Shown here piece by piece: positions 5,210-28,902 of a stretch of DNA of 63,028 bases (within the stretch, counting starts at the first letter, position 1; the number at the start of each line of letters is the position of its first letter). The translations under genes were made by a program, and so were the position numbers. Source of the DNA: Tolypothrix carrinoi HA7290-LM1 (lineage in GTDB: Bacteria > Cyanobacteriota > Cyanobacteriia > Cyanobacteriales > Nostocaceae). A model generated the notes under the pieces. The model saw nothing but the letters and a program-made list of their open reading frames with translations, was not told the origin of the DNA and did no database searches. The DNA lies in the NCBI GenBank assembly GCA_019358935.1, contig JAHHIK010000042.1, forward strand, positions 1 to 63,028, in the 5' to 3' direction.

Positions 5210-5598
5210 TCAGGCTTGTCCAGATTAGATATTAGGCTGCATATACCTAAAGAGTAGTTGGATTTTTTCAAATAAAGATTAGGGTGTATCTACAATTTTC
5301 TCGCATTTGAGAATTTAAATATTCAAGTAAAATAAATCACGAGCATTGCATAACCGTGGAATGAATCGTAGCGTAGAGACGTTCCGCGCCTTACATCTGT
5401 ACAATATGTTCAATTTTTGACGTATAATGCAAAATCACGCATTCATAGGCTGGAAAGTTAGCGCTATTAATATTTACCCGGATATATAACTAAATACTCC
5501 ACTGGCGTTAAGCAAGTAGAGTATTTTTATATACTTGAAATAGTAATGAGTTAGTTCCTAATAAATTGGCTCTAACTACAATTCTTATTGCCATTCAA

Positions 5599-6753: not shown

Positions 6754-9700
6754 TCAGCTAGTTTCAGACGATTTGTTTAGGGAAGATAACTTCATCCTGC
6801 GACTCTCACGCGATAGTGGTACTAAAGCTGGGGCTTGATTTTCAGCATTGATGAGTTTAAAGCTTTCCACCACCTTAGATAATTCTGCAATTGTCGATGC
6901 CTCAAATACGCTACGCAAAGGTAACTCCAACCCAAAGCTGTCGCGCACTCTAGAGACAAGCTGAGTTGCTAATAACGAATGACCACCTAATTCAAAGAAA
7001 TTGTCATGAATTCCTACGTGCTTGAGTCCCAAAACTTCAGCAAAAATTTTCACCAACACTTCTTCAACCAAAGTCCGAGGTGCGACATAACAAAATTCTG
7101 ACTTAATCAAAGGTACTCTTAAAGCACGGCGATTTACTTTGCCATTAGCTGTTAGAGGTAAAGATTCCAGCACTACAAAACTAGATGGCATCATGTACTC
7201 AGGCAGCTTTTGTGCTAAATAAGTTTGCAACTGCGGTACTAACTTACGTGCTGAAGAAGATTGTAAAGGATTATTAGCATAACTTCGCCACGGACGCAAG
7301 TCAGTGCTGGGTGAAAAAATAATTCTTTTATTTATTGCTTCTTGCTGTACAAAAACTACATCGTAGCGTCCTTCACTACTCGAATCTGACCAGCTAATAT
7401 TAACGCTGTAGGGTACATCCATATAAAAATCTTCTGGATCTACTCCTAAATTTTCGAGTTCTTGCAAAGATGAGCGCATTACTCCCGCTGTTTTAAAATC
7501 TTCTATACCTGATAGCCATTCTGCTGTTTTAACTGCTGTTATCACTCGCGCATTAGGTACATTGGTAATAGCTAAAATATTTGGTTGGTTTTCAATTAAT
7601 AGCTGACGCACTGCTGAGAGTGTTAAGTTATTTTTGTCCCAATCCAGCCAATGCGATCGCTCCTGTGCTTGAAAAGGAAGTTTGTTCTGATATACTTTAC
7701 TATCAATATGCAGAATCGCATTGTAACGAAACTGAGTTAATTCATTGCGATCGCGTCCTCGGTTCAGTTGAATTTCTACATGGCTAATTTGGGGAAAACG
7801 CTGCTTTAATGCATTGAAAAAAGCTGGATCGATGACTAACTCTGTTTCTTCAAAAATTTCCATTTGTACCCGTTGCTGTAACTGTTCGCGGGTGAGAGAA
7901 GGTTCTGCTTGATACAGTTGCACAGATGTGTGAAAAGCTTGCAAAAGTTGCAGATTACGCACATCTCCTATAAAGATAAAGCCACCCGGTACAGTTGCCT
8001 GCACAGCACCTTCTAATACGCGAATAAGATAATCAATATTAGGAAAATATTGCACAACAGAATTGAGAATCACCGCATCAAAAGCAGCTTCTATTCCCTC
8101 AAAGTCAGTAGCCATCTTTTGGTGCAACGTTACTTGCGGCATTTCTTGTTTTGTCAACTGCTGTTGAATGTAGTTAAGTGAAATCGGGGAAAAGTCCGTT
8201 GCATAATACTTAGTACAGTGAGGGGCAATTCTGAAGAGTAGTAAACCTGTTCCACAACCAATTTCTAGAACTCGCTTAGGTTGTAAAGTTAGAATTTGCG
8301 CTACTTGGTTATTCACCCATTCGCGTATTTGTTCTGCTGGAATAGGCTGATTTGTGTAACTACTATTCCAGCCGATAAAATTGAATGTTGGATCGCGATC
8401 GGCAGCAGGTTGATTATAAGTGTCGTTATAAAGCATCTGCCATTGCGAAATTTGTTCATCCTGCAATTGCATTAATTGTATATTTTCCTGCTGGTTGCTA
8501 TATTCAGTATTTAGCACAACATAAGCTACTAAACGTTTCTCACCCGCATCCTCAGAAGTCATCACAACATTTTGCTGCACTGCTGGATGCTGACTCAGCA
8601 CCGCTTCAATTTCTCCCAACTCAATGCGATAGCCACGAATTTTTACCTGTTCATCCTCGCGATTTAAAAATTCAATCTTACCATCTAATCGATAGCGAAC
8701 TAAATCACCTGTTTTATAAAGCCGTGCTTTTGAATCGTGGCTAAAAGGATGAGAAATGAATTTTTCAACAGTTAAATCAGAAAGGTTTAAATAGCCTCGT
8801 GCTAACCCATCACCACTTATGTACAACTCACCTGGTACACCAATAGGTACGAGTTGTAAATGTTTATCAAGTATATAAACTTGTGTGTTGTCAATGGGAC
8901 GACCAATTGCAGGTGCGATCCCCCCTTGCCCCCCGAGGATCGGGGGGTTGGGGGGATCTTCTTGATTTATAACAATAACTTGACCGGAAGTTGTCACAAC
9001 TGTATTCTCAGTCGGTCCATAGTTATTAACTACCTGGAAAACATGGTCAGCTAAAGGATATTGATGTAGTTTGTCACCACCTGTAAGCAATATTCGTAAA
9101 GCTGCGTTCTTCGGAAAATCTAATGTGAGAACTTTTTCTGCCAAAGGTGTTGGGAGAAAGCAAATTGTTATCGCTTTTGATATTAGCCAATCTCGTAAAT
9201 GCTCAGGATTTAACTTAATTTCATCATCTACAAAATATATGCTTGCTCCAGCACTAAGATACGGCAAAATTTCCCAAACACAAGCGTCAAAGGCAACCCC
9301 AGCTATCTGCGTTGCTCGGTCAAGGTGTGAAACTGCAAACGCTTTTTGATGCCAAAAAATCAGATTTAATAATCCCCTATGTTCAATTTGTACTCCTTTA
9401 GGCTTTCCAGTTGAGCCAGAGGTATAAATGACGTAAGCGAGGTTGTCTACTGTGACTTGACTGGGAAGATTATCTTCAATTTCTTGAGCAATAATATCCC
9501 AATCTTTATCTAAACAGATTACCCGGCAATTATGGGTTTCAAGCTGTTGAATCCATCGCTCGTGAGTTAATAAAATTGGTACTTGAGCATCTTCAAATAG
9601 AAAATTAAAACGCTCATGCGGATAAGTTGGGTCTAAAGGTACATAAGCTCCCCCCGCTTTCAAAATACCCAACATCCCGATTATCATATCAAAAGAGCGT

Positions 9701-11514
9701 TCTACACAAAGTCCTACTAAAACTTCGGCTTTAACACCCAATTTTTTCAGATAATGTGCAAGTTGGTTGCTGCGTAGATTTAATTCTTTGTAGCTGAGTT
9801 GCTTATCTCCAAATACCAATGCTGTAGAATCAGGAGTTTGCTCTGCTCTATTTTCAAATAATTGATGAATGCATCTATCTTGAGGATAATCTACTTGAGT
9901 ATTGTTCCATTCAATTAACAACTGATGTTGCTCAAGTTGACTTAAAAGTGGTAAATTTGCAATTCGCTCTTCGGGATTTGCAACTATACCCTCTAGCAAT
10001 ATTTGGAAATGTCCAAGCATCCGGGTAATAGTAGCTTCATCAAATAAATCAGTTCTGTAAATTACAAAACCGCTGATTCCTTTCGAGCTATCTACCCATA
10101 ATTGATTGTTTGGTTCTCGCTCCCACAAATGAAATTCTAAATCAAAGCGCGTTGTCTGAGTATCAAATTCCAAAGGACTAAGTATTAAATTAGGTAGCTC
10201 TAACGCAGACATAGGCGCATTTTGAAGCGCAAATACCACTTTAAATAACGGATTTTGATTTAAGTTACGCTCTGGATGCAGTTCTTCTACCAGCTTTTCA
10301 AAAGGCAAATCTTGATGAGCATAAGCACCCAAAGCTACCTCTTTGACTCGACTTAATAATTCTCGAAAAGTTGGGTTTCCACTTAAGTCGGTACGCAGCA
10401 CTAAGCTATTGACAAAAAAGCCAATTAATGACTCAATTTCACTACGGTTGCGGTTGGCGATCGCTGAACCCACAGCAATATCTTCTTGCTGGGTGTAGCG
10501 GTAAAGTAAAATTTTGAATGCTGCCAGCAAAGTCATGAACAAAGTCACTTCTTCTTGCTGCGATAGAGTTTCCAGCGCTTCGCTCAGGCTTTTTGGTAGT
10601 TGCAGAAGTTGCCTTGCACCCTGATAAGTTTGAACTGCTGGTCTTGTGTCAGTAGGCAGATTTAGCATGGAAATGCCGTTTAATTGCTTCTGCCAGTAAG
10701 CTAACTGAGTTTCTAACACTTCCCCTTGCAGCCATTCGCGCTGCCATTGGGCAAAGTCTGCATATTGGATGGCTAGTTTCGGTAAAAAAGAAGGCTGATT
10801 GCTGCGTCTTGCTGTGTAAAGTGCTGCTATTTCACCAATTAGCACCCCCATAGACCAACCATCGGAGACAATGTGGTGCATATTCAATAATAGAATATGT
10901 TCTGTTTCATCCAACCGCAAAAGTGTTACTCGTAGCAACGAATCAGTTGATAAATTGAAAGGACGTTGAGCTTCTTGAGTAGTAAGTTGTCGTGCTTGTA
11001 TTTCACGTTCGGCTTGTGGCAGTTGCCGCAAATCTATTATTGGTAAGGATATTTTTAATGTGGGATTAATTACTTGAACTGGTTGCCCTTGCACCATGAC
11101 AAAATTGGTGCGTAAAGCTTCGTGACGCTGCACTATTTCATTAAATGTTTGCTCTAATGCGGTTGAATTGAGCGAACCTTTTAAATGCAGTGCTGCGGGA
11201 ACGTTATAGAAAGGATTGTTAGGTATTAATTGGTCAAGAAACCATAACCGTTGTTGAGCAAAGGAGAGGGGAAGGTTTCCTGACCGCAAAATAGGTTCGA
11301 GGGGTGTAGAAGTATAGTTGGTAGTACGATTAGCTACTTTTAAAAATTGAATAATTTCTGCTTTATGTTGTTGAATTTCGGCACGCAGTTCTGGTGTTAG
11401 AGTTTTTTCAGGTGCGTTACAGCGCAATTTTTCTTGTTCTAGAAAAATTTGAATATCTAAGCTGCGAAGATAAGATAGAAATTCAACTATTTTCAAAATT
11501 ATACTCCTTGGCAA
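6754..11514 (-). CDS. NRPS module: TubC_N/betaHD docking-C-A(Leu)-N-methyltransferase-T
   Basis: IVEFLSYLRSLDIQIFLEQEKLRCNAP docking domain; HHIVSDGWS; YTSGSTGKPKG; code read by eye DAWFLGNVVK; VLEIGCGTG and NSVVQYFP NMT motifs; FFELGGHSLL; true start may be TTG at 11496. Confidence 0.93.
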   Translation of the reverse strand: MPRSIILKIVEFLSYLRSLDIQIFLEQEKLRCNAPEKTLTPELRAEIQQHKAEIIQFLKVANRTTNYTSTPLEPILRSGNLPLSFAQQRLWFLDQLIPNNPFYNVPAALHLKGSLNSTALEQTFNEIVQRHEALRTNFVMVQGQPVQVINPTLKISLPIIDLRQLPQAEREIQARQLTTQEAQRPFNLSTDSLLRVTLLRLDETEHILLLNMHHIVSDGWSMGVLIGEIAALYTARRSNQPSFLPKLAIQYADFAQWQREWLQGEVLETQLAYWQKQLNGISMLNLPTDTRPAVQTYQGARQLLQLPKSLSEALETLSQQEEVTLFMTLLAAFKILLYRYTQQEDIAVGSAIANRNRSEIESLIGFFVNSLVLRTDLSGNPTFRELLSRVKEVALGAYAHQDLPFEKLVEELHPERNLNQNPLFKVVFALQNAPMSALELPNLILSPLEFDTQTTRFDLEFHLWEREPNNQLWVDSSKGISGFVIYRTDLFDEATITRMLGHFQILLEGIVANPEERIANLPLLSQLEQHQLLIEWNNTQVDYPQDRCIHQLFENRAEQTPDSTALVFGDKQLSYKELNLRSNQLAHYLKKLGVKAEVLVGLCVERSFDMIIGMLGILKAGGAYVPLDPTYPHERFNFLFEDAQVPILLTHERWIQQLETHNCRVICLDKDWDIIAQEIEDNLPSQVTVDNLAYVIYTSGSTGKPKGVQIEHRGLLNLIFWHQKAFAVSHLDRATQIAGVAFDACVWEILPYLSAGASIYFVDDEIKLNPEHLRDWLISKAITICFLPTPLAEKVLTLDFPKNAALRILLTGGDKLHQYPLADHVFQVVNNYGPTENTVVTTSGQVIVINQEDPPNPPILGGQGGIAPAIGRPIDNTQVYILDKHLQLVPIGVPGELYISGDGLARGYLNLSDLTVEKFISHPFSHDSKARLYKTGDLVRYRLDGKIEFLNREDEQVKIRGYRIELGEIEAVLSQHPAVQQNVVMTSEDAGEKRLVAYVVLNTEYSNQQENIQLMQLQDEQISQWQMLYNDTYNQPAADRDPTFNFIGWNSSYTNQPIPAEQIREWVNNQVAQILTLQPKRVLEIGCGTGLLLFRIAPHCTKYYATDFSPISLNYIQQQLTKQEMPQVTLHQKMATDFEGIEAAFDAVILNSVVQYFPNIDYLIRVLEGAVQATVPGGFIFIGDVRNLQLLQAFHTSVQLYQAEPSLTREQLQQRVQMEIFEETELVIDPAFFNALKQRFPQISHVEIQLNRGRDRNELTQFRYNAILHIDSKVYQNKLPFQAQERSHWLDWDKNNLTLSAVRQLLIENQPNILAITNVPNARVITAVKTAEWLSGIEDFKTAGVMRSSLQELENLGVDPEDFYMDVPYSVNISWSDSSSEGRYDVVFVQQEAINKRIIFSPSTDLRPWRSYANNPLQSSSARKLVPQLQTYLAQKLPEYMMPSSFVVLESLPLTANGKVNRRALRVPLIKSEFCYVAPRTLVEEVLVKIFAEVLGLKHVGIHDNFFELGGHSLLATQLVSRVRDSFGLELPLRSVFEASTIAELSKVVESFKLINAENQAPALVPLSRESRRMKLSSLNKSSETS

Positions 11515-11771
11515 GAGTTGTTAGTTACTGCTTTAGGACTAAAAAACGAACCGCAGAGGCGCAGAGTACGCAGAGAAGGAATAAGAGTTTAAGAGAGTTT
11601 TTGTACTTGTTGATTAACTCAGCATTTGTACCACACTTAGAACATCATAAAAATCATTCTTTGGATTGAGAATATAGAACATTTGAGAGATTGCGTAATT
11701 TAGATTTTTTGAAGTATGGTGTTGAAGCACAAAGGTAACGCAGTTTACAAGGTATCGCAAGGTTTAGGCTC

Positions 11772-12899
11772 ATGATATTTATGCCCGTCAATTTCCTGTT
11801 TGTATGGCTGGTTCAACTGCTGTCCATTGGGGTACTTGGTGGGGGAATCTACATTCTTTATGAGTGGTACGAACGAGAACTTGTGGGAACTTTCTATTTG
11901 GTGGTTGGATTAGTAATGGTTTTGTGGTCTATTGGTGGTCGTTTTATTAGTTTGCCACTTTTGCGGCGTCCTGGAACTGATGAACCGAAGTTTATGCGTA
12001 GCAAAACTGTGCAGCGCTTGCCAAGACCGGATGGTAGTGTACTGCAAGTAGAGTTTTTTGGTCCGGAGGATGGTCAACCGATTATTATGTCACACGGTTG
12101 GGGACCGAACAGTACTGTATGGTATTATGCCAAGCGACAATTGAGCGATCGCTTCCGAGTAATTGTATGGGATTTACCAGGGTTAGGAAAATCTTCTAGA
12201 CCGAAGAACAATGATTACTCGGTAGAAAAATATGCTCGCGATTTAGAAGCGGTTGTTGCGATCGCCGGGGATAAGCCTGTTTTCCTGCTAGGACACAGTA
12301 TGGGTGGTATGATTACACTAACGTTCTGTCGGCTGTTTCCAGAGCTTTTGGGGAGTCGGGTAGCTGGCTTAATTCTTGTGGATACTACTTACACCAATCC
12401 GGTAAAAACTTGTATTTTTAGTAATTTGGTACGTAAATTACAGAAGCCGTTGCTCGAGCCTTTGTTGTACGTTACCATTTTGCTGTCACCGATTTTCTGG
12501 TTGATGACTTGGCTCTCGTATCTTAATGGTTCGCTGTATATCAGTGTAGAACTATCTGGATTTACCGGTACAGAAACACGCGGTCAATTAAATTTTGCTG
12601 GTTTCTTATCAGCGTTGGGTTCCCCTGGTGTTTTGGCTCGCGGCACATTGGCAATGTTGAAATATGATGAAACGATGACTTTGCCGATGGTTAATGTTCC
12701 GGTGTTGGTTGTCTGCGGTGCTTCAGATATAGCGACTAAACCTGTTGCGAGCGATCGCATGAAAGCTGAATTACCTTCTTCTGAATTAGTCAGCATCAAA
12801 CGCGGTGGACATATGGCATTGATGGAGCAAAACCAGCGTTTTTCCGAAGCTGTCAGCACGTTTTGTGCTGGTTACTCGAACTCAAGCGTTTTTCCTTAA
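11772..12899 (+). CDS. Membrane-anchored alpha/beta hydrolase
   Basis: Two N-terminal TMs; HGWG oxyanion motif; GHSMGG nucleophile; GGHM; stop overlaps the NRPS stop (TTAA). Confidence 0.88.
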   Translation: MIFMPVNFLFVWLVQLLSIGVLGGGIYILYEWYERELVGTFYLVVGLVMVLWSIGGRFISLPLLRRPGTDEPKFMRSKTVQRLPRPDGSVLQVEFFGPEDGQPIIMSHGWGPNSTVWYYAKRQLSDRFRVIVWDLPGLGKSSRPKNNDYSVEKYARDLEAVVAIAGDKPVFLLGHSMGGMITLTFCRLFPELLGSRVAGLILVDTTYTNPVKTCIFSNLVRKLQKPLLEPLLYVTILLSPIFWLMTWLSYLNGSLYISVELSGFTGTETRGQLNFAGFLSALGSPGVLARGTLAMLKYDETMTLPMVNVPVLVVCGASDIATKPVASDRMKAELPSSELVSIKRGGHMALMEQNQRFSEAVSTFCAGYSNSSVFP

Positions 12900-15800
12900 A
12901 ATTCAACTTCTTCTCGCTCCTGACTTATAGTACCAGCTTTATCTAATGAAGCTGCCCAAGATGTTGTTTCAATGTACTTAGCAAGTTGTTCAACAGTCGG
13001 TGCTTCAAACAAATTGCGTACAGGTAAATCTATTTTAAAGGTGTCCCGAATTCGAGAAACTAACTGAGTAGCTAGTAAAGAATGACCACCCAATTCAAAG
13101 AAATTATCGTGGATACCTACTTGTTCTTTTCCTAAAATTTTAGCCCAAATTTCCACAAGTAAATCTTCAACCTGCGTCCGTGGTGCCACATAATCTGGTT
13201 TATCAAAAGTAATATCAGGTGCTTTTAAGGCACGACGATCCACTTTGCCATTAGGTGTTAGTGGTAGAGATTCGAGTAATACATAGGCTTTTGGCACCAT
13301 GTATTCTGGTAACTTTTCTTTCAAAAATTGACGAAGTAGTAACGCAAGTTTTTGTGCTGATTGCGTCGGTATCTGTTCTTGGTTGGAAACAATATAAGCC
13401 ACCAACTGCTTATCACCAGCTATTTCCTCATCGGCAATAACTACTGTTTCTCTCACCGCTGGATGTTGACTCAGCACCGCTTCTATTTCTCCCAACTCGA
13501 TGCGGAAGCCACGAATTTTAACTTGATTGTCAATGCGACCTAAAAATTCAATATTGCCATCTGGTAAATACCGAGCTAAATCACCCGTTTTGTAAATTGT
13601 AGAGACGCGATATATCGCGTCTCTACAGGAAATGAAAGGATTAGGAATAAAGCGTTCAGCAGTTAACTCAGGACGATTTAAATATTCTCGCGCAAGTCCA
13701 TCACCACCAATGTATAATTCGCCAACAACGCCAATTGGCACAGGTTGTAAATTAGCATCTAATAAATAAATTTGTGTATTTGCAATCGGGCAACCAATGG
13801 GAATAGATGTAGCTGATTCTGGTACGTTTTCCACCCTGTAATATGCAGAAAATGTTGTACTTTCTGTAGGACCATAAACATGAATTAAGTGTTTTGGCGA
13901 ACCATTTTTGATAATCTTTTTCACCCATCTAATATCAACAGTTTCACCCCCAAATAGTAAATATCGCAAGGTCGCGAAAGCTTGCGGAACATCTCTGGCA
14001 ATTTGTTGAAATAAAGCAGTAGTCAAAAACAGAACGCTGATACCTTTTTGTTGTAGTTGTAATGCAAATTCCTGAGGTGAAAGGATGACATCTTTGCTAA
14101 TTCCCACAAGTTGAGCACCATTAAGTAGCGCTCCCCAAATCTCGAATGTCGCTGCATCAAAGGAAGTATTCGAGGCTTGAGCAATTTTATCAGTAGGTTG
14201 CAATTTTATATAGTTTGTATTGCACACCAATCGATTTACAGCTTTGTGAGTTACAGCCACTCCTTTAGGTTTTCCTGTAGAGCCAGAAGTATAGATTACA
14301 TAAGCTAAATTATCGCTGCTTACGCTATTTTTCGGGTTTTCTTCGCTTTCTTGGGCAATAATTTCCCAGTCTTTATCTATGCAAATAATTGGATTTGAGA
14401 AGCTTTGAAAATGCTTGAGCAACTTTTCTTGTGTTAGCAATACTGAAACTTGTGCATCTTCCAGCATGAAATTTAAACGCTCTTGAGGATAGCTTGGATC
14501 TAAAGGAACATATGTTCCCCCAGCTTTCATAATCCCCAACAACCCGATTATCATTTCTGGTGACTGTGAAATGCAAATGCCTACTAAAACTTCAGATTTT
14601 ACCCCCATTTTTTGCAAATGCTGTGCTAGTTGATTGCTGCGAACATTCAACTCTCCATATGTCAGAGACGCGATATATCGCGTCTCTACATTTTCAAAGA
14701 TTATTGCTATCGAATCAGGATGCTGCTTCACCTGATTTTCAAACAACTGATGGATACACTTATCTTGAGGATAATCAACTTGAGTATTATTCCATTCGAC
14801 TAATAGCTGATGTAGCTTTTGTGCGTTTAATAGCGGTAAATGAGCGATGCGTCGATCTGGATTAGCAACAATGCCTGATAACAGAGTTTGAAAATCTTCC
14901 AGCATCCGAGTAATAGTGGCTGGCTCAAACAAATCTGTGCTGTAAACCATTACACCTCTAATACCCTCAGAATGCTCCCATTTTGCACCCCATAAACTTC
15001 TAAAATCCTCGGAACACTTCCACAGATGCAACTCCAAATCAAAGCGTGTTTTCTTCAAGTCAATATTTATAAAACTAGGCACTAACCCAGGCATTTCTAG
15101 CGCTGACATTGGTGCATTCTGAAAACCAAACACCACTTGAAATAGCGGATGCTGGCTCAAGTTTCGCTCTGGATGCAGTTCTTCTACTAGCTTTTCAAAG
15201 GGCAAATCTTGATGACTGTATGCTCCTAGTGTTACTTCCCGTACTCTAGATAGCAATTCGCGGAAAGTCGGGTTTCCACTTAAGTCGGTGCGTAGCACCA
15301 AACTATTGACAAAAAAGCCAATTAATCCTTCGATTTCGCTGCGGTTACGGTTAGCAATTGGCGAACCTACCGCAATATCTTCTTGATGTGTGTAGCGGTA
15401 AAGCAACGTTTGAAATGCTGCCAGCAGCGTCATAAATAAGGTGACACCTTCTTGCTGCGAAAGCTTTTCTAGTGCATCAGTTAGGTTTTTCGGTAACTCT
15501 AGAAATTGCGTTGCTCCTTGATAGCTTTGTATAGGCGATTTTAATTTTTCGGTAGGCAGATGTAGCATGGAAATGCCGTTTAATTGCTGACGCCAATAAG
15601 TTAACTGATTTTCCAACACTTCTCCTTGCAACCATTCGCGCTGCCAGTGAGCAAAATCGGCATATTGAAGAGGCAATTCTAACAGTGAAGCCTGATTTTG
15701 TGCAAAAGCTGCGTACAGCGTTCCCAATTCGCGAATTAGCACCCCAATAGACCAATCGTCGCAGATAATGTGGTGCATATTCAGTAATAGAATATGTTCT

Positions 15801-16204: not shown

Positions 16205-16234
16205 ACTTTTTGAGCCATGCTTTCAGCATATGAC

Positions 16235-16418
16235 AGGACTTACGCAAAAACTCTCTCGCTCCTCTTATTCCTCTGTGAACTCTGCGTTCTCTGCGGTAGC
16301 CTTCTCTTCTCCCAAAGGGAGACGCTTGCGCGAACGAGAGGCTTGTCTGCGACACGCTCCGCGAACGCCAACGGCAACGCCAAGGGCGAACGTTATTTTA
16401 TAATTTTGCGTAAGTCCT
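16235..16418. mobile_element. MITE-like element with 15-bp TIRs and nested short dispersed repeats
   Basis: AGGACTTACGCAAAA...TTTTGCGTAAGTCCT; internal CTCCCAAAGGGAGACGCTTGCGCGAACG and similar units. Confidence 0.75.
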
Positions 16419-16534
16419 AATATAGATGTAAACAATTGATGATATTTCCTAATTTCAACAAACATCTAACTTAAGATAGATGCCTAAATCATCAGCTAAC
16501 TGCATCTTCACCTTACAGACGCGATAAAACAAAA

Positions 16535-19500: not shown

Positions 19501-22500
19501 TGATTCGGCTTATAAATTTGGCAAGTTGGCTTTAAGCTTGCTGGAACGATACAACGTTTTAGAAATTAAGACAAGTGTATTCTTCGTAGCAGCGGCATGT
19601 ACGATTCATGGTAAAGTTCATGTTAGGGAAACTTTGCCACTTTTACAACATGGATATGAAAGTGGACTGGAAAACGGACATTTTGAATATGGTGGCTATG
19701 CCGCTATGCAAAAATGCCAATATTCATATTTCATCGGTGAGGAACTGACAAGCCTTGAACGAGAAATGGCAACAATTAGTAATTCCCTGGCTCAACTCAA
19801 GCAAGAAAACGCCTTGAGTTGGAATCAAATATTTCAGCAGTCAGTTCTTAACTTACTGGAACTTTCTGAAAATCCGTGCTGTTTGCTGGGTGAAGTATAC
19901 AACCAGGAGAAATCATTACCGCTTCTGAGAAAAGCCAATGATAGAACTGGACTCCACTATTTTTATTTAAACAAACTTATTCTCTGTTATTTGTTTGGAG
20001 AGTACCAACAAGCATGGGAAAATGCTGCTTCTGGTTCTCAGTATTTAGATGGGGTAAAAGCGTTTCTTGTTGTACAAGTGTTTTATTTATACGATTCTCT
20101 AGCACAACTAGCCATATATTCATCAGTACCACACTCACAACAAGAACACCTATTGAGCAAGGTGACGAAGAATCAGGAAAAAATGCGAAAATGGGCAGAC
20201 CATGCTCCAATGAATTTTCAGCATAAGTACGAGCTTGTGGAGGCAGAAAAAGCGCGAGTATTAAGTCAATATTGGCAAGCGATGGAATTTTATGACCGAG
20301 CGATCGCTCAAGCTAAAAACCAGGGATACATCCAAGAAGAAGCACTCTGCAATGAACTGGCAGCAAAGTTTTATTTTGAGTCTGGCAGAGAAAAGGTGGC
20401 TCAGACTTATTTGACTGATGCTTACTATGGATATATTCGCTGGGGAGCGACGGCAAAAGTCAAAGATTTAGAAGCAAGATATGCTCATATCTTCTCTCAC
20501 ATATCGCAGGAAAAAGCCAAAGTAGAGATAAGTCAGACAATTAGATCTACGACTATAAATAGTCCCGCTTTTCTGGATTTAGCCGCAGTTATGAAAGCAT
20601 CTGTTGCCCTTTCTGGTGAAATGCTTCTGGACAAATTGCTGGCGAAATTGATGCAAATTGTTTTGGCAAATGCCGGAGCAGAAACAGGATTTTTAATTTT
20701 AGAAAAATCAGGGCAGTTATTTATAGAAGCCTCTGGAAGTGTTGGGCATGAAATAACGGTGCAGCAATCAACACCTATAGAATCTAGTCAGCAGCTACCA
20801 ATATCTTTGATTAATTATGTGCGAAGTACTCAGGAGAATATTGTACTGAACGACGCTAGCCGTCAGGGAGTATTTACCACAGATAGCTATATCCTCAACA
20901 AAAAACCAAAATCTATTTTGTGTACGCCAATTGTTAATCAAGGTAAACTTATTGGCATTCTTTATTTAGAAAATAACTTGACCACTGCTGCATTTACACC
21001 AGAGCGATTGGAAGTATTACAACTTTTATCCTCTCAAGCAGCAATATCGATTGAGAATGCGCGTCTTTATAATGATTTAGAGGAGTATAATCAAACGCTC
21101 AGTGCGAAAGTCGAAGAGCGAACGTTGGAGTTACAAGAGAAAAATTTACAATTACAACAGGAAATTAAAGAACGGCAGCGAGCAGAAGAAGCAGCAAAAC
21201 AAGCCAACCGTGCCAAGAGCGAATTCTTAGCTAATATGAGCCATGAATTCCGCACCCCGCTCAATGGTATTTTGGGTTATACGCAAATTTTTCAGAAAGA
21301 TAAAAATTTAACTTCTCAGCAAAAGAATGGTATTAATATTATCCATCAGTGTGGGGAACATCTACTGACACTGATCAACGATATTTTAGACCTCTCCAAA
21401 ATCGAAGCTCGGAGAATGGAACTTGAGGCAAAAGAGTTTGTTTTTCCGGAATTTATTGAGAGTATTGCTGATATTTGCCGCATTCGTGCCCAACAAAAGG
21501 GAATTTCCTTAATTTACAAAACGTTTTCTCCACTACCAAGAGTCATTCGAGCAGATGAAAAACGGTTGCGTCAAGTCTTGATTAATTTACTTAGCAATGC
21601 GGTTAAGTTTACAGAAAAAGGATGTATAACTTTTAAAGTGGGCTATCTAAAGGAGAAACTTCGGTTTCAAGTGGAAGATACGGGTATTGGCATTGCAGAA
21701 GAGCAATTAGAAGAAATATTTTTGCCATTCCAGCAGGTGGGTGAGCATAGTCGGAAGATTGAAGGAACAGGATTGGGATTGGCAATTAGCCATCAATTAG
21801 TTGAGCTCATGGGTGGGGAATTGATGGTAAAGAGTACTTTAGGGAAAGGAAGCGTTTTTTGGCTAGAGTTGGATTTACCTGAGGTTTTGCAACAGATTAA
21901 TGTGAACAGCGTCGATCGCCGCCACATCATTGGTTTTCTTGGCTGCAAACGGAAAGTTTTGGTGGTAGACGACAAATGGGCAAATCGTTCGGTTTTGCTG
22001 AATCTACTAGAGCCTTTAGGGTTTGAAGTCGCAGAAGCGACAGATGGCTTAGACGCTCTTAATAAAGCGCATGAATTTAAGCCCGATGTCATTTTTATGG
22101 ACTTGGTAATGACCGTGATGGACGGTTTTGAAGCTACCCGTCGCCTCAGAATGTTACCAGACCTGAAGGAAGTGGTGGTGATTGCTGCCTCGGCTAGCGT
22201 TTTTGATTTCGATCAAAAGCAAAGTCGAGAAGTTGGTTGCGATGATTTTATCCCCAAACCAATCCGGGAAGCAGAGCTTTTAGAAAAATTACAAATTCAC
22301 TTGGGGCTGGAATGGGTTTATGAGGAGCAAAAAAGCAGGGAAGAACTCAGCAGTCCCCTACGCACTCAGGACTCATTTGTGGCTCCACCAGCAGAGGAAC
22401 TAGCTGTCTTGCTTGATTTAGCGATGAGGGGAGACTTAAGAGGCATTACACAACGAGCGATAAAATTAGAGGAGTTGGATGAACGATGGATACCGTTTGC

Positions 22501-22570
22501 CACTCATTTGCGCCAACTTGCCAAAGGTTTTAAAGGGAAACAAATCTTGGAGTTTCTCAAGCAATATTAA
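16535..22570 (+). CDS. Multi-domain Ser/Thr kinase-AAA ATPase-GAF-His kinase-receiver
   Basis: IHKDIKPQN; GTLAYMSPEQTGRMNR; GYSGIGKS; GAF (ILYLENN); ANMSHEFRTPLN; DTGIGI; GTGLGL; receiver VVDD...FMDL...PKP. Confidence 0.93.
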   Translation: MSITIAGYNLIEVICDGNTTCVYRATREPEQTSVIIKTIKTEYPTIEQLTRLRHEYQILQSLEIEGIVKPLAWMSDRNGLALILSDFGGEPLKNFITAQNLDLSNFLQIGIQLSSTLAQIHQNNIIHKDIKPQNILINAKTGQVEIIDFSISSHLSRENQTVSNLNLLEGTLAYMSPEQTGRMNRAIDYRTDFYSLGVTFYEMLTGQLPFQATDPLELVHCHIAKTPVPPKEVNSEIPQAVSHIVMKLLAKTAEQRYQSALGLKADLEECLRKLQATGTIENFIVGQLDSYSQFIIPQKLYGREKEVASLINAFDRVSLGATEIILVSGYSGIGKSSLVNEIHKPIVRQRGYFISGKFDQFKRNIPYASIIQAFQELIRQLLTESAEKVAVWKAKLLNAVGSNGQVIIDVIPEVERIIGSQPAVPQLAATESQNRFNRVFQQFIHVFCQPEHPLVLFLDDLQWTDSASLKLIQLLACDLNSQYLLLIGVYRDNEVSATHPLMLTLEEIQKTNAVVNNIVLQPLHITHVNQLVSDTLRTDQQKSQPLAKLLFNKTQGNPFFLTQLLKSLHQENLLSFNFSQGCWQWDIELLKDIDITDNVVELMVNQIQKLSPTTQNVLKLAACIGDKFTLDILSIVNQKYLSQTAVDLWESLQAGLVLPLDESYKIPLVGEWGDKETRRQGDKETRGSFLLSYPFPLLKMPNAQFPISYKFLHDRVQQAAYSLIADSQKKETHLKIGQLLLQKTTLEERKENIFALVNQLNYGTDLLTLESEKYELAELNLIAGQKAKAATAYESAIRYLKVGLDLLTANSWEEQYEITLALYELAVETAYLNGDFQQMEKWATIVLQQAKTFIDKMKVYEVKIQACMAQVKQLEAVKIGLEALELLGVRFPLPTDLDIEQTLSQTAINLTGKSIEDLINLPLMTEVDKLAAIRMLTSMGSPTYQAAPALFPLIVCEHVNLSIKYGNAPFSAYGYVCYGVILNGVIQDIDSAYKFGKLALSLLERYNVLEIKTSVFFVAAACTIHGKVHVRETLPLLQHGYESGLENGHFEYGGYAAMQKCQYSYFIGEELTSLEREMATISNSLAQLKQENALSWNQIFQQSVLNLLELSENPCCLLGEVYNQEKSLPLLRKANDRTGLHYFYLNKLILCYLFGEYQQAWENAASGSQYLDGVKAFLVVQVFYLYDSLAQLAIYSSVPHSQQEHLLSKVTKNQEKMRKWADHAPMNFQHKYELVEAEKARVLSQYWQAMEFYDRAIAQAKNQGYIQEEALCNELAAKFYFESGREKVAQTYLTDAYYGYIRWGATAKVKDLEARYAHIFSHISQEKAKVEISQTIRSTTINSPAFLDLAAVMKASVALSGEMLLDKLLAKLMQIVLANAGAETGFLILEKSGQLFIEASGSVGHEITVQQSTPIESSQQLPISLINYVRSTQENIVLNDASRQGVFTTDSYILNKKPKSILCTPIVNQGKLIGILYLENNLTTAAFTPERLEVLQLLSSQAAISIENARLYNDLEEYNQTLSAKVEERTLELQEKNLQLQQEIKERQRAEEAAKQANRAKSEFLANMSHEFRTPLNGILGYTQIFQKDKNLTSQQKNGINIIHQCGEHLLTLINDILDLSKIEARRMELEAKEFVFPEFIESIADICRIRAQQKGISLIYKTFSPLPRVIRADEKRLRQVLINLLSNAVKFTEKGCITFKVGYLKEKLRFQVEDTGIGIAEEQLEEIFLPFQQVGEHSRKIEGTGLGLAISHQLVELMGGELMVKSTLGKGSVFWLELDLPEVLQQINVNSVDRRHIIGFLGCKRKVLVVDDKWANRSVLLNLLEPLGFEVAEATDGLDALNKAHEFKPDVIFMDLVMTVMDGFEATRRLRMLPDLKEVVVIAASASVFDFDQKQSREVGCDDFIPKPIREAELLEKLQIHLGLEWVYEEQKSREELSSPLRTQDSFVAPPAEELAVLLDLAMRGDLRGITQRAIKLEELDERWIPFATHLRQLAKGFKGKQILEFLKQY

Positions 22571-22583
22571 TTAAGAAATTTTT

Positions 22584-24545
22584 ATGAGTGATTTTACTGA
22601 AAAAGGTGTAATTTTAATCGTTGATGACACTCCCACAAATTTAGAGATATTGTTCGATTTTTTAGCCGATGCTCGATTTACAGTGTTGGTTGCAGAAGAT
22701 GGCGAAAGTGCGATCGCCAGAGCTGAATATGCTCCACCCGACTTGATTTTGTTAGACATACTCATGCCGGGAATGGACGGTTTTGAAACGTGCCGCCGTC
22801 TGAAAGACAATGAGTTAACAAAAGATATTCCCGTCATTTTCATGACCGCACTTTCCGAAACAGTGGATAAGGTCAAAGGCTTGAATCTTGGTGCAGTGGA
22901 TTATATCACCAAACCGCTTCAGCATGAAGAGGTTTTAGCCCGTATCGAACTTCATCTCAGGCTGCGGAACCTAACTAAAACACTCCAAGAGCAAAATCTG
23001 CAAATCCGCGAACAAGCTGCTTTGCTTGATATCACCACAGATGCAATTTTGGTTAGAGACTTCGACAACCAAATCTGTTTTTGGAACAAAGGAGCCGAAC
23101 ATTTGTATGGATGGAAGGCAATAGAAGCAATTGGCAAGAATGCCAATCAACTTCTGTATCCGCTGGAAGCTCAATCTCAACTCCAAAACCTCCAAGAAAG
23201 TTTACCTATTGGTGGCTCCTGGCAGGGTGAGTTGCATCAAGTAACCAAAGAAGGCAAGGAAATAATTGTTGCTAGCCGCTGGACTTTGATGCGCGATCAT
23301 AATGACCAACCTAAATCGATTCTTACGGTCAATACCGACATTACAGAGAAAAAACAACTCGAAGCGCAGTTTCTCCGAGCGCAGCGACTGGAGAGCATTG
23401 GCACACTTGCCGGCGGCATTGCACATGACCTGAACAATATTCTGACTCCAATTCTGGCGGTAGCGCAACTGTTGCCGCTAAAACTCTCCCATATTGATGA
23501 GCAAAGTCAGCAGATGTTTAAGATTATAGAAATTAACGCTAAACGCGGGGCGGCTTTGGTCAAGCAAGTGCTACAGTTTGCACAGGGAGTTGAAGACAAG
23601 CGCACGATTGTGCAAGTGAAGGATTTGTTCTCAGAAATCAAGCAGATTGTCCAACAGACATTTCCCAAATCGATTGAATTTTCCACAAATATAAAGTCAG
23701 ACCTTTGGGCTGTCGTTGCCGATGCCACACATTTGCATCAGGTGCTGATGAACCTAGTCGTCAACGCTCGCGATGCCATGCCCGACGGCGGGAATTTGAG
23801 TATCTCTGCGGAAAATGTGTTCATCGACCAACAGTATGTCCGCATGAATCTTGAGGCAAGTGTTGGTCCCTACATTGCGATCGCTGTTGCAGATACAGGC
23901 ATCGGTATGTCCCTAGAAATAGTGGATAGAATATTCGAGCCGTTTTTCACTACTAAAGAGTTTGGCAAAGGTACAGGTTTGGGTCTTTCAACCGTGAGGG
24001 GCATTATAACAAGTCATGGTGGTTTTGTCAACGTATCCAGCAATGTTGGAAGAGGAACTGAATTTAAAGTGTTCTTGCCAGCAGTGCAGGCAACAGCAAC
24101 GTCACTTGCAGAAAACCTCGAACTACCAAAAGGAAACGGAGAATTAATTCTCGTTGTCGATGACGAAGCCCCAATTTTAGAGACGACCAAAATCTCGTTA
24201 GAAACGTACAATTATAGAGTGTTGACAGCCAGCGATGGAATTGAGGCGATCGCGCAGTATGCCCAGCACAAAGATAAAATTAGTGTAGTGTTGGTGGATA
24301 TGATGATGCCGTCGATGGACGGAGCGCTCACCATTCGCGCATTGCAAAAAATGAATTCCCAAGTCTTGATTATTGCTGTCAGCGGTTTGGTAGCCAGTAA
24401 TAAACTCATCGGGGTTGCTCAAGTCAAAGCATTTCTTTCTAAACCCTACACTACAAAAGAATTATTGCAAACTTTACACAAATTAAAGCTGAAGGAACAC
24501 GAAAATGTGCCTCGTACCCAGACGACGAAATTAATACCCAACTAA
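22584..24545 (+). CDS. Hybrid REC-PAS-His kinase-REC protein
   Basis: ILIVDD...LLDILMP; PAS ([11 protein letters not shown]); [25 protein letters not shown]-terminal receiver. Confidence 0.93.
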
Positions 24546-24546
24546 A

Positions 24547-24716
24547 ATCATGTCTGGTTAAAAACTTATCATTAAGGGGGCAGGGGGCAGGGGGCAGGGG
24601 GAGCAGGGGGAGCAGGGGGAGCAGGGGGCAGGGGGAGCAGGGGGAGCAGGGGGAAAGAGGATTTGAAGACATTTGCATAAAAGCCCTTTTTTATAACTAA
24701 TAAGCGCGGACATGAT
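24547..24716. mobile_element. MITE-like element with ATCATGTC(T/C)G TIRs containing GGGGGAGCA/GGGGCAG tandem repeats
   Basis: ATCATGTCTG...CGGACATGAT. Confidence 0.6.
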
Positions 24717-24789
24717 ATAAAACTATATGTAAAGTTTTGTTGCTAAAGCTTGATTTAATAGCTTCAGTTGTTGTCAATTAAAAAATTTG

Positions 24790-27700
24790 TTAACCGACAG
24801 ATAAATTTTGTGCTTTTTCAATACAGACTCTTAACTGTTCGGCAAGAACCTGGATATGGGGTTTTCTCAGCATGGTGAGGTGATTACCAGGAATAGTATG
24901 AATTTCTGTTTTTTCAACCGCTAGCTGATTCCAACCCATACTCAAATCTTCCTCGGCAATATTTGACTGAACCTTTGTTCTGAAAAGATTAATTCGCTTC
25001 GGGTAGACCTGGGGAACGTAGTTGAGAACTGCTTGGTTATTAGCATAAAAAACACGAAGCATGGGACGAATTGTTAACTCGTTTAAAATTCTTAACCGGA
25101 ATTCCTCAGGCATCGAGTTGACTATAGCAGCTTCTTTCAAGATAATGTGTGAAAACAAATTTGTTTCCAGCCATTGAATAAATTTATGAAAATTAGGAAG
25201 ACGAAAAATTAAACTTTTAATTTTGTTTTTGCTAGGAGCAGTAATTAAACGCAAATAATCGAAGAAAAATGACCATATATATCGCGCTACTGTCGTGAAA
25301 AGAAACTTTAACCCATTACCAAAGTCAGGTATATTGCTCTTAATTGGTGCTAAAGTATCAAGTATAGCAAGTAAAGCGACTTCATCCCCAGATTTTTGCA
25401 GTTGTTGAGCCATTTCAAAAGCAACCAAACCGCCAAAAGACCAACCTCCTAAATAATAAGGTCCTTTTGGCTGTACTTTACGCAATGCTTCAATATAGTG
25501 GGCAGCCATTTCCTCAATGTGAGTTAGTGGCGTTTCTCCGTCAAGTCCAATCGGCTGTAGCCCGTAAAATGGTTGATTTGTCCCCAAATGATGAGCTAAT
25601 TCGTAATAAGGAAAGACAACACCAAAGATTGGATGAACGCAAAAGAAAGGCGGATTTGAACCAGCAGGCTGAATCGCAACTAAGGGAGACCAAGACAGAG
25701 AATTTGTTTCTGGGCAGAGAGAATTTGCTAAACTTTCAATTGTGGGATTTAAAAATATGGTAGATAGTGGCAATTCACGCTCAAATTGCTTGTGTATTTG
25801 CTCCAACAAGCGTACAGTTAACAGCGAATTTCCTCCCAAGTCGAAGAAGTTATCGTAAATACCCACACGCTCAAGTTGAAGGACTTCAGCCCAGATTTTT
25901 GCTAATGTTAACTCGGTTGAATTACGAGGAGCGATATAAGTTTTATCTATTGAGCGATTAGTTGTGTCGAGTGCTGTGAGTGCAAAACGATCTAGTTTGC
26001 CATTAGGCGTTAGCGGCAGAGAATCCAGCACTATAAAGGCTGCTGGTATCATGTATTCTGGCAGTTTTTCTTTTAAGAATTCACGTAGTTTGCTAGTTGT
26101 TGCTGACTGCTTCGTGGGAATAATATAAGCCACCAAGTAGCGATCGCCTGACACGTTCTCTTTAGCAATTACTACCGCTTTTTCCACGCTTTGATGCATC
26201 ATCAGCACCGTTTCAATCTCTGATAACTCAATGCGAAAGCCACGAATTTTAACTTGATTATCGATGCGACCCAAAAATTCAATATTACCATCTACTCGAT
26301 AACAAGCTAAATCACCGCTCTTGTAAAGTCGCGTTTTTGGGAGAAACCCGGTTTCTTGAAGAAACCGGGTTTCTGTTAGAAGAAACCGATTTTGTGTTAA
26401 TTCGGGACGATTGAGGTAGCCTTGACCCACACCCTCACCACCGATGTATAATTCACCAGGAATTCCAATTGGTACAGGTTGTAAATACTTATCTAATATA
26501 TAAATTTGAGTGTTAGCAATAGGACGACCTATAGAGGGTTTTTCATCAAGAGCGCTAATTTCCGCAACCGTTGACCAAACAGTTGCTTCAGTCGGACCGT
26601 AAGCATTAAAAAATCGACGATTAGAACTCCACCAGCGTTTTATAATATCCTGTGAACAGAATTCGCCTGCACAAATTATACTTTGCAATGCTGGGAGTGA
26701 TTCTGTCGGTAGAACTGCTAACACCGCAGGTGGAAGGGTGACGTGAGTAATAGCTTTTTCGCGCAATAATTGCAGCAAAGCTTTTCCGGGTAGAAGCGAT
26801 TCTTTCTTTGCTAAATAAAGAGTTCCTCCTGTTCGCAGTGCCATGACAATCTCAAAAATTGAGGCATCAAAACTCAATGATGCAAATTGCAAAATGCGAT
26901 CGCTCGGTTGCAAGTTGAAAACTTCAATTTGAGCTGATGCCAAGTTAAACAGTCCTCGGTGCTTGATTAAAACACCTTTAGGTTGTCCTGTTGAGCCAGA
27001 GGTGTAAATAACATAAGCTAGGTTATCAGATGTTACGCAACTAATGGGGTTTTCCTGGCTATGTTGTGTAATAGTTGCCCAATCTTCATCTATGCAAATA
27101 ATTGGATTCGAGAAGTGCTGAAAATGCTTGAGTAAGTTTTCTTGTGTTAGCAATACTGAAACTTTCGCATCTTCTAGCATGAAATTTAGACGCGATTGAG
27201 GTAGGCTCGGTTCTAAAGGCAAGTATGCTCCACCTGCCTTAAGAATGCCCAACAAGCCGATTATCATTTCGAGCGATCGCTCTACGCAAATGCCAACTAA
27301 AACATCTGGAACTACTCCTAATTGTTGCAGGTGATGTGCAAGTTGGTTAGCTCGGATGTTCAGTTTCTGGTAGGTTAATTGCTGGTGTTCAAAAAATAGT
27401 GCGATCGCATTCGGAGTTTCCGCCACAATTGCTTCAAAAAACTGATGAAAACACAGTTGGATTTTAGATTTTGGATTTTGGATTTTGGATTGATTCTGAT
27501 TAAATTCTATTAATAATTGATGTCGTTCTGCTTTTGTTAAAATTGACAAGTCGCAAAGGCGCTGTTTTGGATTAGCAACAATGCTTTCTAGCAGCGTTTG
27601 GAAATGTCCCAACATCCGGGTAATAGTGCTGTCATCAAATAAATCGGTGCTATACACTACTTGTCCTTTAAGGCTTTCCAAATCTTGCCAGAGGTGAAAC

Positions 27701-28902
27701 TCCAAATCTAGCTTTGCGGTTTTGCTGTCAAACTCGAATTGCGAAAGCGTTAACCCAGGTAACTCTAGCGCAACGATTGGAGTATTTTGCAGGCTAAATA
27801 CGACCTGAAACAACGGATGACGGCTTAAATCTCGTTCTTGGTGTAGTTCCTCCACCAGCTTTTCAAAGGGCAAGTCCTGATAAGCATAAGCGCCCAAAGT
27901 TACTTGTCGCACTCGATTCAACAGTTCTTGGAACGTTGGATTTCCTGAGAAATCGGTACGCAGTACTAAAGTATTGACAAAAAAGCCAATTAACCCTTCT
28001 ACCTCGCTGCGGCTGCGATTGGCAATGGGCGATCCGATCGCAATGTCCTTCTGTTGCGTGTAGCGATAAAGCAACGTTTGAAACGCTGCCAGCAGAGTCA
28101 TGAACAAGGTAACGCCTTCTTGGTGGCTAAGTGTCTCTAGCGCCTGAGTTAAATAGGGCGGTAGTTGTATAAATTGTTTCGCACCTTTGTAAGTTGGAAC
28201 TGCTGGTCTTAATCGGTCAGTGCGGAGATTCAGCACCGAGATTTTATCTAACTGATGACGCCAGTAACGTAACTGGGTTTGTAGCACTTCTCCTTGCAGC
28301 CATTCCCGCTGCCATTCGGCGAAATCTGCATACTGAATGGGTAGTTCCGGTAGGGGCAATTGCTTATCCTCTAAAAAGGCTTTATATAGTGTCCCCAGTT
28401 CTTTAATTAGTACTCCAATAGACCAGCCATCAGCAACAATATGATGTAGGTTCAGTAGTAGCACGTATTCGGCTTCATCGAGTTGTAGCAGCGTCAATCG
28501 CAGCAACGGTCCGGTGGTGAGATTGAAAGAACGTTCAGCCTCTTCGCTTAAAAGTCGCCGCGCTTGTGTTTCACGTTCTTGGCTTTCAAATTGATTGCAT
28601 AGGTCTATTACTCTAAGAGGTATAATTAAGGTGGGAGCTATTACTTGTACTGGTTGCCCCTCTACCATGACAAACGTGGTACGTAAAATTTCGTGACGGC
28701 GTACTACCTCGTTGAATGTCTGCGTTAAAGCGGTGAAGTTGAGGCTCCCTGTCAGGCGAAGTGCTGTTGACACATTGTAAAATGGATTGCCTGGTGCTAA
28801 AGAGTCGAGAAACCACAGCCGTTGTTGAGCGAAAGAAGTGGCAAAAACGAAAACCTCTGCTTCTTCAGTAGCAGTGGAATTACTGAAAAGATACTGGCTC
28901 AT
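24790..28902 (-). CDS. NRPS termination module C-A(Phe-like)-T-TE
   Basis: HHIVADGWS; code DAFTIAAVWK; FFDLGGNSLL; TE GWSFGG and PGNHLTM; ATG at 28902. Confidence 0.93.
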   Translation of the reverse strand: MSQYLFSNSTATEEAEVFVFATSFAQQRLWFLDSLAPGNPFYNVSTALRLTGSLNFTALTQTFNEVVRRHEILRTTFVMVEGQPVQVIAPTLIIPLRVIDLCNQFESQERETQARRLLSEEAERSFNLTTGPLLRLTLLQLDEAEYVLLLNLHHIVADGWSIGVLIKELGTLYKAFLEDKQLPLPELPIQYADFAEWQREWLQGEVLQTQLRYWRHQLDKISVLNLRTDRLRPAVPTYKGAKQFIQLPPYLTQALETLSHQEGVTLFMTLLAAFQTLLYRYTQQKDIAIGSPIANRSRSEVEGLIGFFVNTLVLRTDFSGNPTFQELLNRVRQVTLGAYAYQDLPFEKLVEELHQERDLSRHPLFQVVFSLQNTPIVALELPGLTLSQFEFDSKTAKLDLEFHLWQDLESLKGQVVYSTDLFDDSTITRMLGHFQTLLESIVANPKQRLCDLSILTKAERHQLLIEFNQNQSKIQNPKSKIQLCFHQFFEAIVAETPNAIALFFEHQQLTYQKLNIRANQLAHHLQQLGVVPDVLVGICVERSLEMIIGLLGILKAGGAYLPLEPSLPQSRLNFMLEDAKVSVLLTQENLLKHFQHFSNPIICIDEDWATITQHSQENPISCVTSDNLAYVIYTSGSTGQPKGVLIKHRGLFNLASAQIEVFNLQPSDRILQFASLSFDASIFEIVMALRTGGTLYLAKKESLLPGKALLQLLREKAITHVTLPPAVLAVLPTESLPALQSIICAGEFCSQDIIKRWWSSNRRFFNAYGPTEATVWSTVAEISALDEKPSIGRPIANTQIYILDKYLQPVPIGIPGELYIGGEGVGQGYLNRPELTQNRFLLTETRFLQETGFLPKTRLYKSGDLACYRVDGNIEFLGRIDNQVKIRGFRIELSEIETVLMMHQSVEKAVVIAKENVSGDRYLVAYIIPTKQSATTSKLREFLKEKLPEYMIPAAFIVLDSLPLTPNGKLDRFALTALDTTNRSIDKTYIAPRNSTELTLAKIWAEVLQLERVGIYDNFFDLGGNSLLTVRLLEQIHKQFERELPLSTIFLNPTIESLANSLCPETNSLSWSPLVAIQPAGSNPPFFCVHPIFGVVFPYYELAHHLGTNQPFYGLQPIGLDGETPLTHIEEMAAHYIEALRKVQPKGPYYLGGWSFGGLVAFEMAQQLQKSGDEVALLAILDTLAPIKSNIPDFGNGLKFLFTTVARYIWSFFFDYLRLITAPSKNKIKSLIFRLPNFHKFIQWLETNLFSHIILKEAAIVNSMPEEFRLRILNELTIRPMLRVFYANNQAVLNYVPQVYPKRINLFRTKVQSNIAEEDLSMGWNQLAVEKTEIHTIPGNHLTMLRKPHIQVLAEQLRVCIEKAQNLSVG

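Follow-up and report, generated by a model that had tools for sequence, protein, structure and literature searches.

A probable copy of the orphan NRPS family CF-39 in Tolypothrix carrinoi, its accessory hydrolase and a neighbouring kinase pair

Three single-module nonribosomal peptide synthetase (NRPS) genes, interleaved with a hydrolase gene and two large kinase genes, lie in a stretch of 63,028 nt from the cyanobacterium Tolypothrix carrinoi HA7290-LM1 (Cyanobacteriota; Cyanobacteriales; Nostocaceae; assembly GCA_019358935.1, contig JAHHIK010000042.1, or C42, in a genome of 7.96 Mb). This whole stretch is called the window below, and the genes are named N1, N2 and N3 for the NRPSs and K1 and K2 for the kinases. 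Such a layout raises the question of whether synthase, sensor and degrading enzyme form one signalling circuit around a small peptide, as an original prediction made on this DNA proposed. We find that the cluster is very probably an intact copy of the orphan NRPS family CF-39, and the order of genes in its relatives shows, with high confidence, that its conservation does not extend to the kinases.

The cluster and its published family

An open reading frame (ORF) and domain scan of the window recovered all six genes as uninterrupted frames at the positions and with the domains first described, the three NRPS genes on the minus strand and the hydrolase and kinase genes between them. In the list below, C stands for condensation, A for adenylation, MT for methyltransferase, T for carrier and TE for thioesterase domain.

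6754-11514, minus: N3, likely second module, TubC_N-C-A-MT-T with an embedded MT; A-domain code DAWFLGNVVK, predicted Leu
6781..6834, minus: basic C-terminal tail of N3, APALVPLSRESRRMKLSS, conserved in 100/101 orthologues, putative donor docking tail
11338..11490, minus: TubC_N docking domain of N3, residues 9-59 (PF18563, E 8e-19)
11772-12899, plus: alpha/beta hydrolase, membrane-anchored, accessory gene (Ser176, Asp319, GH motif)
12896-16195, minus: N2, likely first module, C(HHIICDD)-A-T with an acidic end (..REEVEF); A-domain code DAFFLGVTFK, predicted Ile
15755..15775, minus: active-site motif HHIICDD of the N2 C domain, with an acidic last position where Gly is usual
16535-22570, plus: K1, dual Ser/Thr-His kinase of the cbSTKIII/HstK type, Pkinase-AAA_16-GAF-HisKA-HATPase-REC
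22584-24545, plus: K2, hybrid kinase (REC-PAS-HK-REC), REC-PAS-HisKA-HATPase-REC
24790-28902, minus: N1, likely last module, C-A-T-TE; A-domain code DAFTIAAVWK, Phe-like

A motif search found the carrier-domain motif LGG[H/N]SL kept in each NRPS; the N1 thioesterase holds GWSFGG and GNH, the N3 methyltransferase holds LEIGCGTG, and all kinase and receiver motifs are present in K1 and K2. Extraction of the three A-domain codes from motif anchors, at positions that we take to follow the PheA numbering, reproduced exactly those that had been read by eye. The frames of N2 and N1 can be extended to TTG codons at 16204 and 28935, respectively. The hydrolase gene is divergent from N3 and convergent with N2, and its stop overlaps the N2 stop by four bases (TTAA), as had been claimed; as a conserved feature this overlap was rejected, since it was seen in three relatives of the genus and most loci have other genes or gaps at this place. 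The claimed absence of polyketide synthases (PKS) and ABC exporters was likewise borne out, with zero matches to PKS or ABC-transporter families among the 33 window ORFs scanned. A promoter/terminator scan of positions 11000-25200 stayed at chance level (29 against 30.3 +/- 5.8 and 15 against 12.2 +/- 4.0). At the A8 hinge of N3 (residues 950-958), the sequence reads NREDEQVK, a form seen in 2 of 54, compared with GRLDEQVK in most orthologues.

The original prediction had guessed that the trio might belong to a known orphan family without a product, and it matches two published entries. CF-39 was described as eight NRPS clusters of 4-6 genes among 126 genomes, product unknown; the legend of Figure 5 marks a conserved hydrolase gene and the text reports gene shuffling in the family (Calteau 2014, PMC4247773). 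Its entry for strain PCC 9009 measures 13,699 bp, exactly the span from N3 to N1 in locus L085 (Tol9009DRAFT), the strain synonymy being given elsewhere (PMC5987646). The window cluster is of NRPS type, has 4-6 genes, includes the conserved hydrolase and is 77% (N3), 87% (hydrolase), 81% (N2) and 74% (N1) identical to L085, above the limit of >52% protein identity to members. Cluster 16 of Mastigocladopsis repens PCC 10914, product unknown, is printed with the domain orders C-A-PCP, C-A-MT-PCP and C-A-PCP-TE and with the calls DAFFLGVTFK (Ile, 100%), DAWFLGNVVK (Leu, 100%) and DAFTIAAVWK (Phe, 80%) (Micallef 2015, PMC4558948); set beside these printed data, the window agrees in the domain order of each NRPS and in all three codes. 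Because of the 74-87% identity to L085, the matching span of the PCC 9009 entry and the agreement with Cluster 16, we assign the window cluster to CF-39 with little doubt. CF-8 was considered and ruled out, being a hydrocarbon PKS in Calteau's scheme.

The NRPS trio and the hydrolase are therefore already catalogued in print, and what is added here is the verdict on the kinases together with data on family distribution, gene order and the first C domain. The window copy departs from the published descriptions in its arrangement: Cluster 16 consists of collinear genes with no hydrolase listed between them, whereas in the window N1 lies upstream of N2 and the trio is interrupted by the hydrolase and the kinases; the word kinase is absent from the main text of Calteau 2014. 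No product assigned to CF-39 was found in the open-access literature, subscription journals and bioRxiv supplements lying outside the scope of that search.

Distribution was followed in 301 genomes spread evenly over the host's order and in 201 genomes of its taxonomic family, orthologues being assigned manually according to identity and the length of the frame. In the order sample, N3 has an orthologue in 55 genomes, N1 in 52 and either of them in 59, to be compared with Calteau's 8 clusters in 126 genomes; four of the seven genomes with N3 only show N1 beside it in locus view. Within the family, N3 occurs in 48/201 genomes. Named carriers include lichen and soil Nostoc, Microcoleus, Scytonema, Calothrix, Brasilonema and Coleofasciculus. 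The codes hardly vary: the first set of loci kept them in 46/49 N2, 43/54 N3 (nine more with one difference) and 37/41 N1, and a set of 51 loci chosen by N3 alone (the NRPS-selected set) in 39/45 N2 (two truncated), 45/52 N3 and 7/7 complete N1. All NRPS domains show dN/dS of 0.13-0.26 (25 orthologues each). The family is thus present in about a fifth of the sampled order genomes, with nearly constant predicted residues encoded by three to four genes in ~14 kb, and identification of its product would name a very common cyanobacterial metabolite.

Two variants deserve mention. In six N3 of one taxonomic family (L144, L147, L150, L153, L156 and L157) the code DAFIIGAIW replaces the Leu code, and five of the six genomes also have HHxxxDE in N2; such loci would make a natural variant of the product, in which the N-methylated residue is a different one and perhaps aromatic. 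In G006, a 105-kb contig (C13) that also carries partition genes contains the complete cluster with its flanks in two inverted copies, which represent either a real inverted duplication or an assembly artefact.

The kinase pair beside N2

Agr/Com-type systems are the model for a signalling module in which a synthase stands with its cognate sensor kinase and a means of turnover. The original prediction saw this layout in the window, with K1 and K2 as the peptide sensor, and named beforehand as refuting the absence of kinases and hydrolase beside orthologous NRPS trios. Such absence is what we found for the kinases, whereas the link to the hydrolase holds (see below). Among 123 loci with an N2 or N3 orthologue (10 duplicates removed, views of 20-40 kb or less), K1 or K2 has an orthologue in 4 and none in the remaining 119; the NRPS-selected set has none in any of its 51 loci. 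The gene directly upstream of N2, in the 104 loci considered, is N1 in 41, K1 in 4, the hydrolase in 2, another gene in 53 and out of sight in 4, and the gap that holds K1-K2 in the window is filled by many different genes in relatives. Members of the genus differ from one another: G001, G005 and G009 carry the pair between N1 and N2, in G003 this place is taken by other genes and K1-K2 are found on a separate contig, and G006 has no insert. On a 63-kb Nostoc plasmid the cluster consists only of N3, the hydrolase, N2 and N1.

The reverse comparison agrees. A K1 orthologue at at least 73% is found in 31/201 genomes of the host's taxonomic family, of which 15 carry N3 and 16 do not, and 33 of the 48 N3 genomes are without K1. 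Where both are present, K1 adjoins the NRPS genes in 5/15 genomes, the window included. Among 20 other K1 loci that were fetched, K2 follows K1 in 15 and an NRPS is seen in one. K1 shows no transmembrane segment, and the single hydrophobic segment of K2 lies within its last REC domain; these scans and the lack of ABC families in the window leave the locus with neither a membrane sensor domain nor an exporter, and K1 may sense through its soluble GAF domain. The host genome holds seven further K1 paralogues of full-length-like size. The pair is likely an unrelated neighbour inserted in this lineage.

Two observations speak against so clean a separation. In G345, a member of another genus, N2, N3 and N1 form a collinear operon in that order and K1 lies head-to-head with N2, as it does in the window and in three genomes of the window's genus. 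Because K1 and N2 of G345 group with another lineage and not with the window's (quick K1 tree without bootstrap; FastTree of N2, 77/102 sequences), the adjacency is probably older than the genus, or arose twice, and the old gene order was broken in most descendants. Genomes of the family that carry N3 are also enriched in K1 (15/31 against 33/170, or 48% against 19%), perhaps as a result of kinship and genome size; a loose regulatory link between K1 and the NRPS genes may also exist. Both points favour the circuit first proposed, with K1/K2 as sensor of the peptide and the hydrolase as the enzyme that destroys it, or a version in which the kinases would act on the NRPS genes through the divergent region between them. 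Set against them are the near-absence of the kinases from orthologous loci, the many genomes with one partner only, the variety of genes in the K1-K2 gap, the lack of a transmembrane segment in K1 and its seven long paralogues, and we regard the circuit as very improbable. The idea of a kinase sensor built into the locus, which was the surprising element of the original prediction, does not stand, and everything else there is already catalogued. Its residual interest lies in the commonness and conservation of the family and in its unusual first C domain, the window copy itself being ordinary.

Window positions ~24575-24655, in the gap from K2 to N1, hold a run of short tandem repeats of the GGGGGAGCA type; further small repeats are dispersed over ~16230-16420, in the gap from N2 to K1. 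Next to N1, an alpha-2-macroglobulin gene (28944-29426 and 31048-36795) is split into two ORFs of 1561 and 348 aa, where G001 has a single 1923-aa ORF; its last domain is duplicated directly upstream of N1, the copies being 89% identical, with an MscS-type gene between.

Module order, first condensation domain and hydrolase

The acidic C-terminal motif of N2 (EVEF in 43 and DVEF in 26 of 89 orthologues, close variants in most others) would, in all likelihood, bind the TubC_N domain of N3, as in the known docking pair of a short motif with a beta-hairpin (PMC9113145). With similar confidence, the basic tail of N3 would bind the N-terminal strand of N1, whose E-V-F-V-F-P pattern was found in 39/47 N1 orthologues and also in 89/89 N2 orthologues. 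Such a basic tail occurs in the host genome only in N3 and in one NRPS of another cluster. The cluster with this other tail also includes, at G000:C63:9082-19512, an NRPS that begins with the same docking strand and whose internal C domain reads HHIISDD. Gene order in the NRPS-selected set places N2 upstream of N3 in 44 loci and N1 downstream of N3 in 23, with the order N2-N3-N1, N2 directly upstream of N3, in 15/51. Since the docking ends match and gene order agrees, the modules likely act in the order N2 (Ile), N3 (N-methyl-Leu) and N1 (Phe, TE), although the window transcribes N1 first. From the A-domain codes, the core is predicted to be Ile-(N-methyl-Leu)-Phe, a small hydrophobic peptide with Phe as the weakest call, which the N1 thioesterase would release. 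The residues and order originally proposed thus gain support from codes, docking ends and collinear operons.

The first C domain, that of N2, keeps its HH and D in 89/89 orthologues within the motif HHxxxD[D/E], where the last position, in place of Gly, is Asp in 84 and Glu in 5; among the three NRPSs, only N2 has this acidic change. Its dN/dS is 0.134, the two C domains that act in elongation giving 0.142 and 0.160 (25 orthologues per domain), and its nearest solved relatives are elongating C domains. A single-chain model reaches a mean pLDDT of 77. In the fuscachelin NRPS, a domain with HHxxxDE is active, the Glu lying near the acceptor amine (PMC8097023). Given the invariant HH and D, a constraint like that of working C domains and the active fuscachelin motif, we think that the N2 C domain works; its motif, kept in 89/89 under strong purifying selection, makes a capped or extended N-terminus likely. 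In the mechanism that we tentatively prefer, the domain would join an acyl group to Ile. Primary metabolism is our choice of source, at a little under even chances, and supply of the donor by another cluster seems quite improbable. A free Ile-N-methyl-Leu thioester would tend to leave as a diketopiperazine, a loss that a cap would prevent. No anabaenopeptin-type starter NRPS was seen in a by-eye motif census of the host genome, in which no family search was made.

Two hydrophobic segments (residues 8-26 and 37-55) lie near the N-terminus of the hydrolase, which also has the motifs GHSMGG, Asp319 and GH; the Ser is kept in 105/105 orthologues and the Asp in 104/105, and a dN/dS of 0.085 indicates strong selection. 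No close solved or curated relative was found (best PDB match E 2e-19, no NCBIfam cut-off reached), and its Atlas matches are generic alpha/beta hydrolases only. In the order sample, 35/38 hydrolase-bearing genomes carry the NRPS, compared with 37/99 for the control gene DUF2391, and within DUF2391-bearing genomes all 27/27 hydrolase carriers do so; in the host's taxonomic family, 23/30 carriers have N3. Conversely, 24/59 NRPS genomes have no hydrolase, and the hydrolase depends on the NRPS more than the reverse. It is present in 69/123 N2/N3 loci, a count inflated by 80 starting loci that were selected by the hydrolase, and in 19/51 NRPS-selected loci. The link to the trio, which the original prediction had drawn, is real but optional, and the hydrolase is an accessory gene. 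We propose, with moderate confidence, that this optional enzyme would remove the cap or degrade the peptide at the membrane.

A glycosyltransferase (L043:7533-9062 and similar loci) close to structure 2r60, a sucrose-phosphate synthase of the Halothermothrix type (E 1e-151), lies between N2 and the hydrolase in 26/123 NRPS loci and is found in 40/80 hydrolase-selected loci, some without NRPS. It was rejected as a core tailoring gene: 25 of these 26 loci are hydrolase-selected, and it is absent from the window cluster, the best match in the host genome being 26%.

The whole account, made of a CF-39 copy with the above docking order, a capped Ile-N-methyl-Leu-Phe core, turnover by the hydrolase and unrelated kinases, is in our view moderately probable. 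Several points weigh against it. No acyl-loading gene (fatty acyl-AMP ligase or acyl carrier protein) recurs near the family loci and the first C domain is by sequence of the elongation type, not the starter type, so that the cap and its donor are a conjecture. The acidic residue of the fuscachelin domain lowered turnover of a large acceptor, Leu (PMC8097023), and such a residue is thus not obviously suited to Ile. The hydrolase is found without any NRPS gene in view in 25/80 hydrolase-selected loci, some on short contigs, and without N3 in 7/30 genomes of the host's taxonomic family; it is broken in two close relatives, G003 and G009, and its distant homologues stand among general-stress genes, without NRPS, so that it may have another substrate. 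All co-occurrence counts are overstated, as relatives are not independent.

The alternatives differ mainly at the N-terminus and in the role of the hydrolase. If the first C domain were a scaffold only, the N-terminus would be free and the product would be Ile-N-methyl-Leu-Phe, a TE-made cyclodimer or, as a side product, cyclo(Ile-N-methyl-Leu). Consistent with this are the lack of a conserved donor gene near the family and the restriction of the acidic change to N2; the inactive X domain of glycopeptide synthetases also ends in DD (HRxxxDD). Moreover, Micallef 2015 left the completeness of clusters starting with a C domain undecided (PMC4558948). A dead domain would, however, be expected to lose its His in some lineages, whereas catalytic His and Asp persist in all 89 orthologues under a constraint equal to that of working domains, and we judge a pure scaffold unlikely. 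Less likely still, in our estimate, is iteration of the rhabdopeptide kind, in which the N3 tail would dock on both N2 and N1 and the N2-N3 pair would cycle to give a series (Ile-N-methyl-Leu)n-Phe. The shared strand at the start of N1 and N2, the constancy of the N3 tail and its rarity in the host genome fit this idea, as do the prediction of the N2 strand as beta (residues 7-10, block pLDDT about 61) and the three C domains of the cluster, which are closest to each other in the host genome (64-68% against at most 60%); iteration through promiscuous docking is documented for rhabdopeptide NRPSs (bioRxiv 10.1101/349555, PMC9113145). On the other hand, the strand may be structural or inherited from a triplication of modules, and the rhabdopeptide architecture differs, as set out below.

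It is also possible, though we lean against it, that the hydrolase belongs to a set of general-stress genes on this genomic island and is inherited together with the NRPS genes while acting on a different substrate. The flank of N3 (window 2788-5871) holds Dps, DUF2391 with a small partner, and a GlsB/YeaQ-type membrane protein; the distant hydrolase homologues lie beside Dps, GlsB, BON and hemerythrin genes; and many Nostoc loci pair the hydrolase with the sucrose-phosphate-synthase-like gene without NRPS. In 8 Nostoc loci that have no NRPS, the same GlsB-type gene lies close to the hydrolase, a few genes away. Co-inheritance as a neighbour nevertheless accounts poorly for a hydrolase that, across the order, is rarely seen outside NRPS genomes (35/38), including those in which the genes are widely separated, and for the 27/27 among DUF2391-bearing genomes, as DUF2391 itself shows no such restriction. 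Turnover of the product by an optional hydrolase therefore stays the preferred reading.

Comparison with known systems

K1 has the domains that define the cbSTKIII dual kinases (HstK/Alr2258 type) of filamentous cyanobacteria, namely an N-terminal Ser/Thr kinase, a GAF domain and a C-terminal His kinase, and in the members described there the stimulus is the nitrogen source or iron rather than a peptide (PMC2176072). K1 differs from them by its terminal REC domain and its partner K2.

The NRPS trio can be compared with the rhabdopeptide/xenortide (RXP) NRPSs of Xenorhabdus. Its subunits all carry beta-hairpin docking domains and a terminal C domain adds an amine, whereas CF-39 has TubC_N on N3 only, a tail of another type at one junction and release by the TE of N1. 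Iteration, shown for RXP, is only possible for CF-39. A more speculative and rather improbable extension would make CF-39 a conserved regulatory peptide pathway, in which the N2 C domain, with its invariant acidic change, takes the chain back from N3, a series (Ile-N-methyl-Leu)n-Phe is ended by the TE and the hydrolase, as a membrane enzyme dedicated to it, sets its level; if true, CF-39 would rank among the most widespread orphan cyanobacterial peptide pathways, with a regulatory peptide of its own. The two systems are alike in their separate single-module subunits, their embedded N-methyltransferase, a TubC-type beta-hairpin docking pair and a C domain on the first module.

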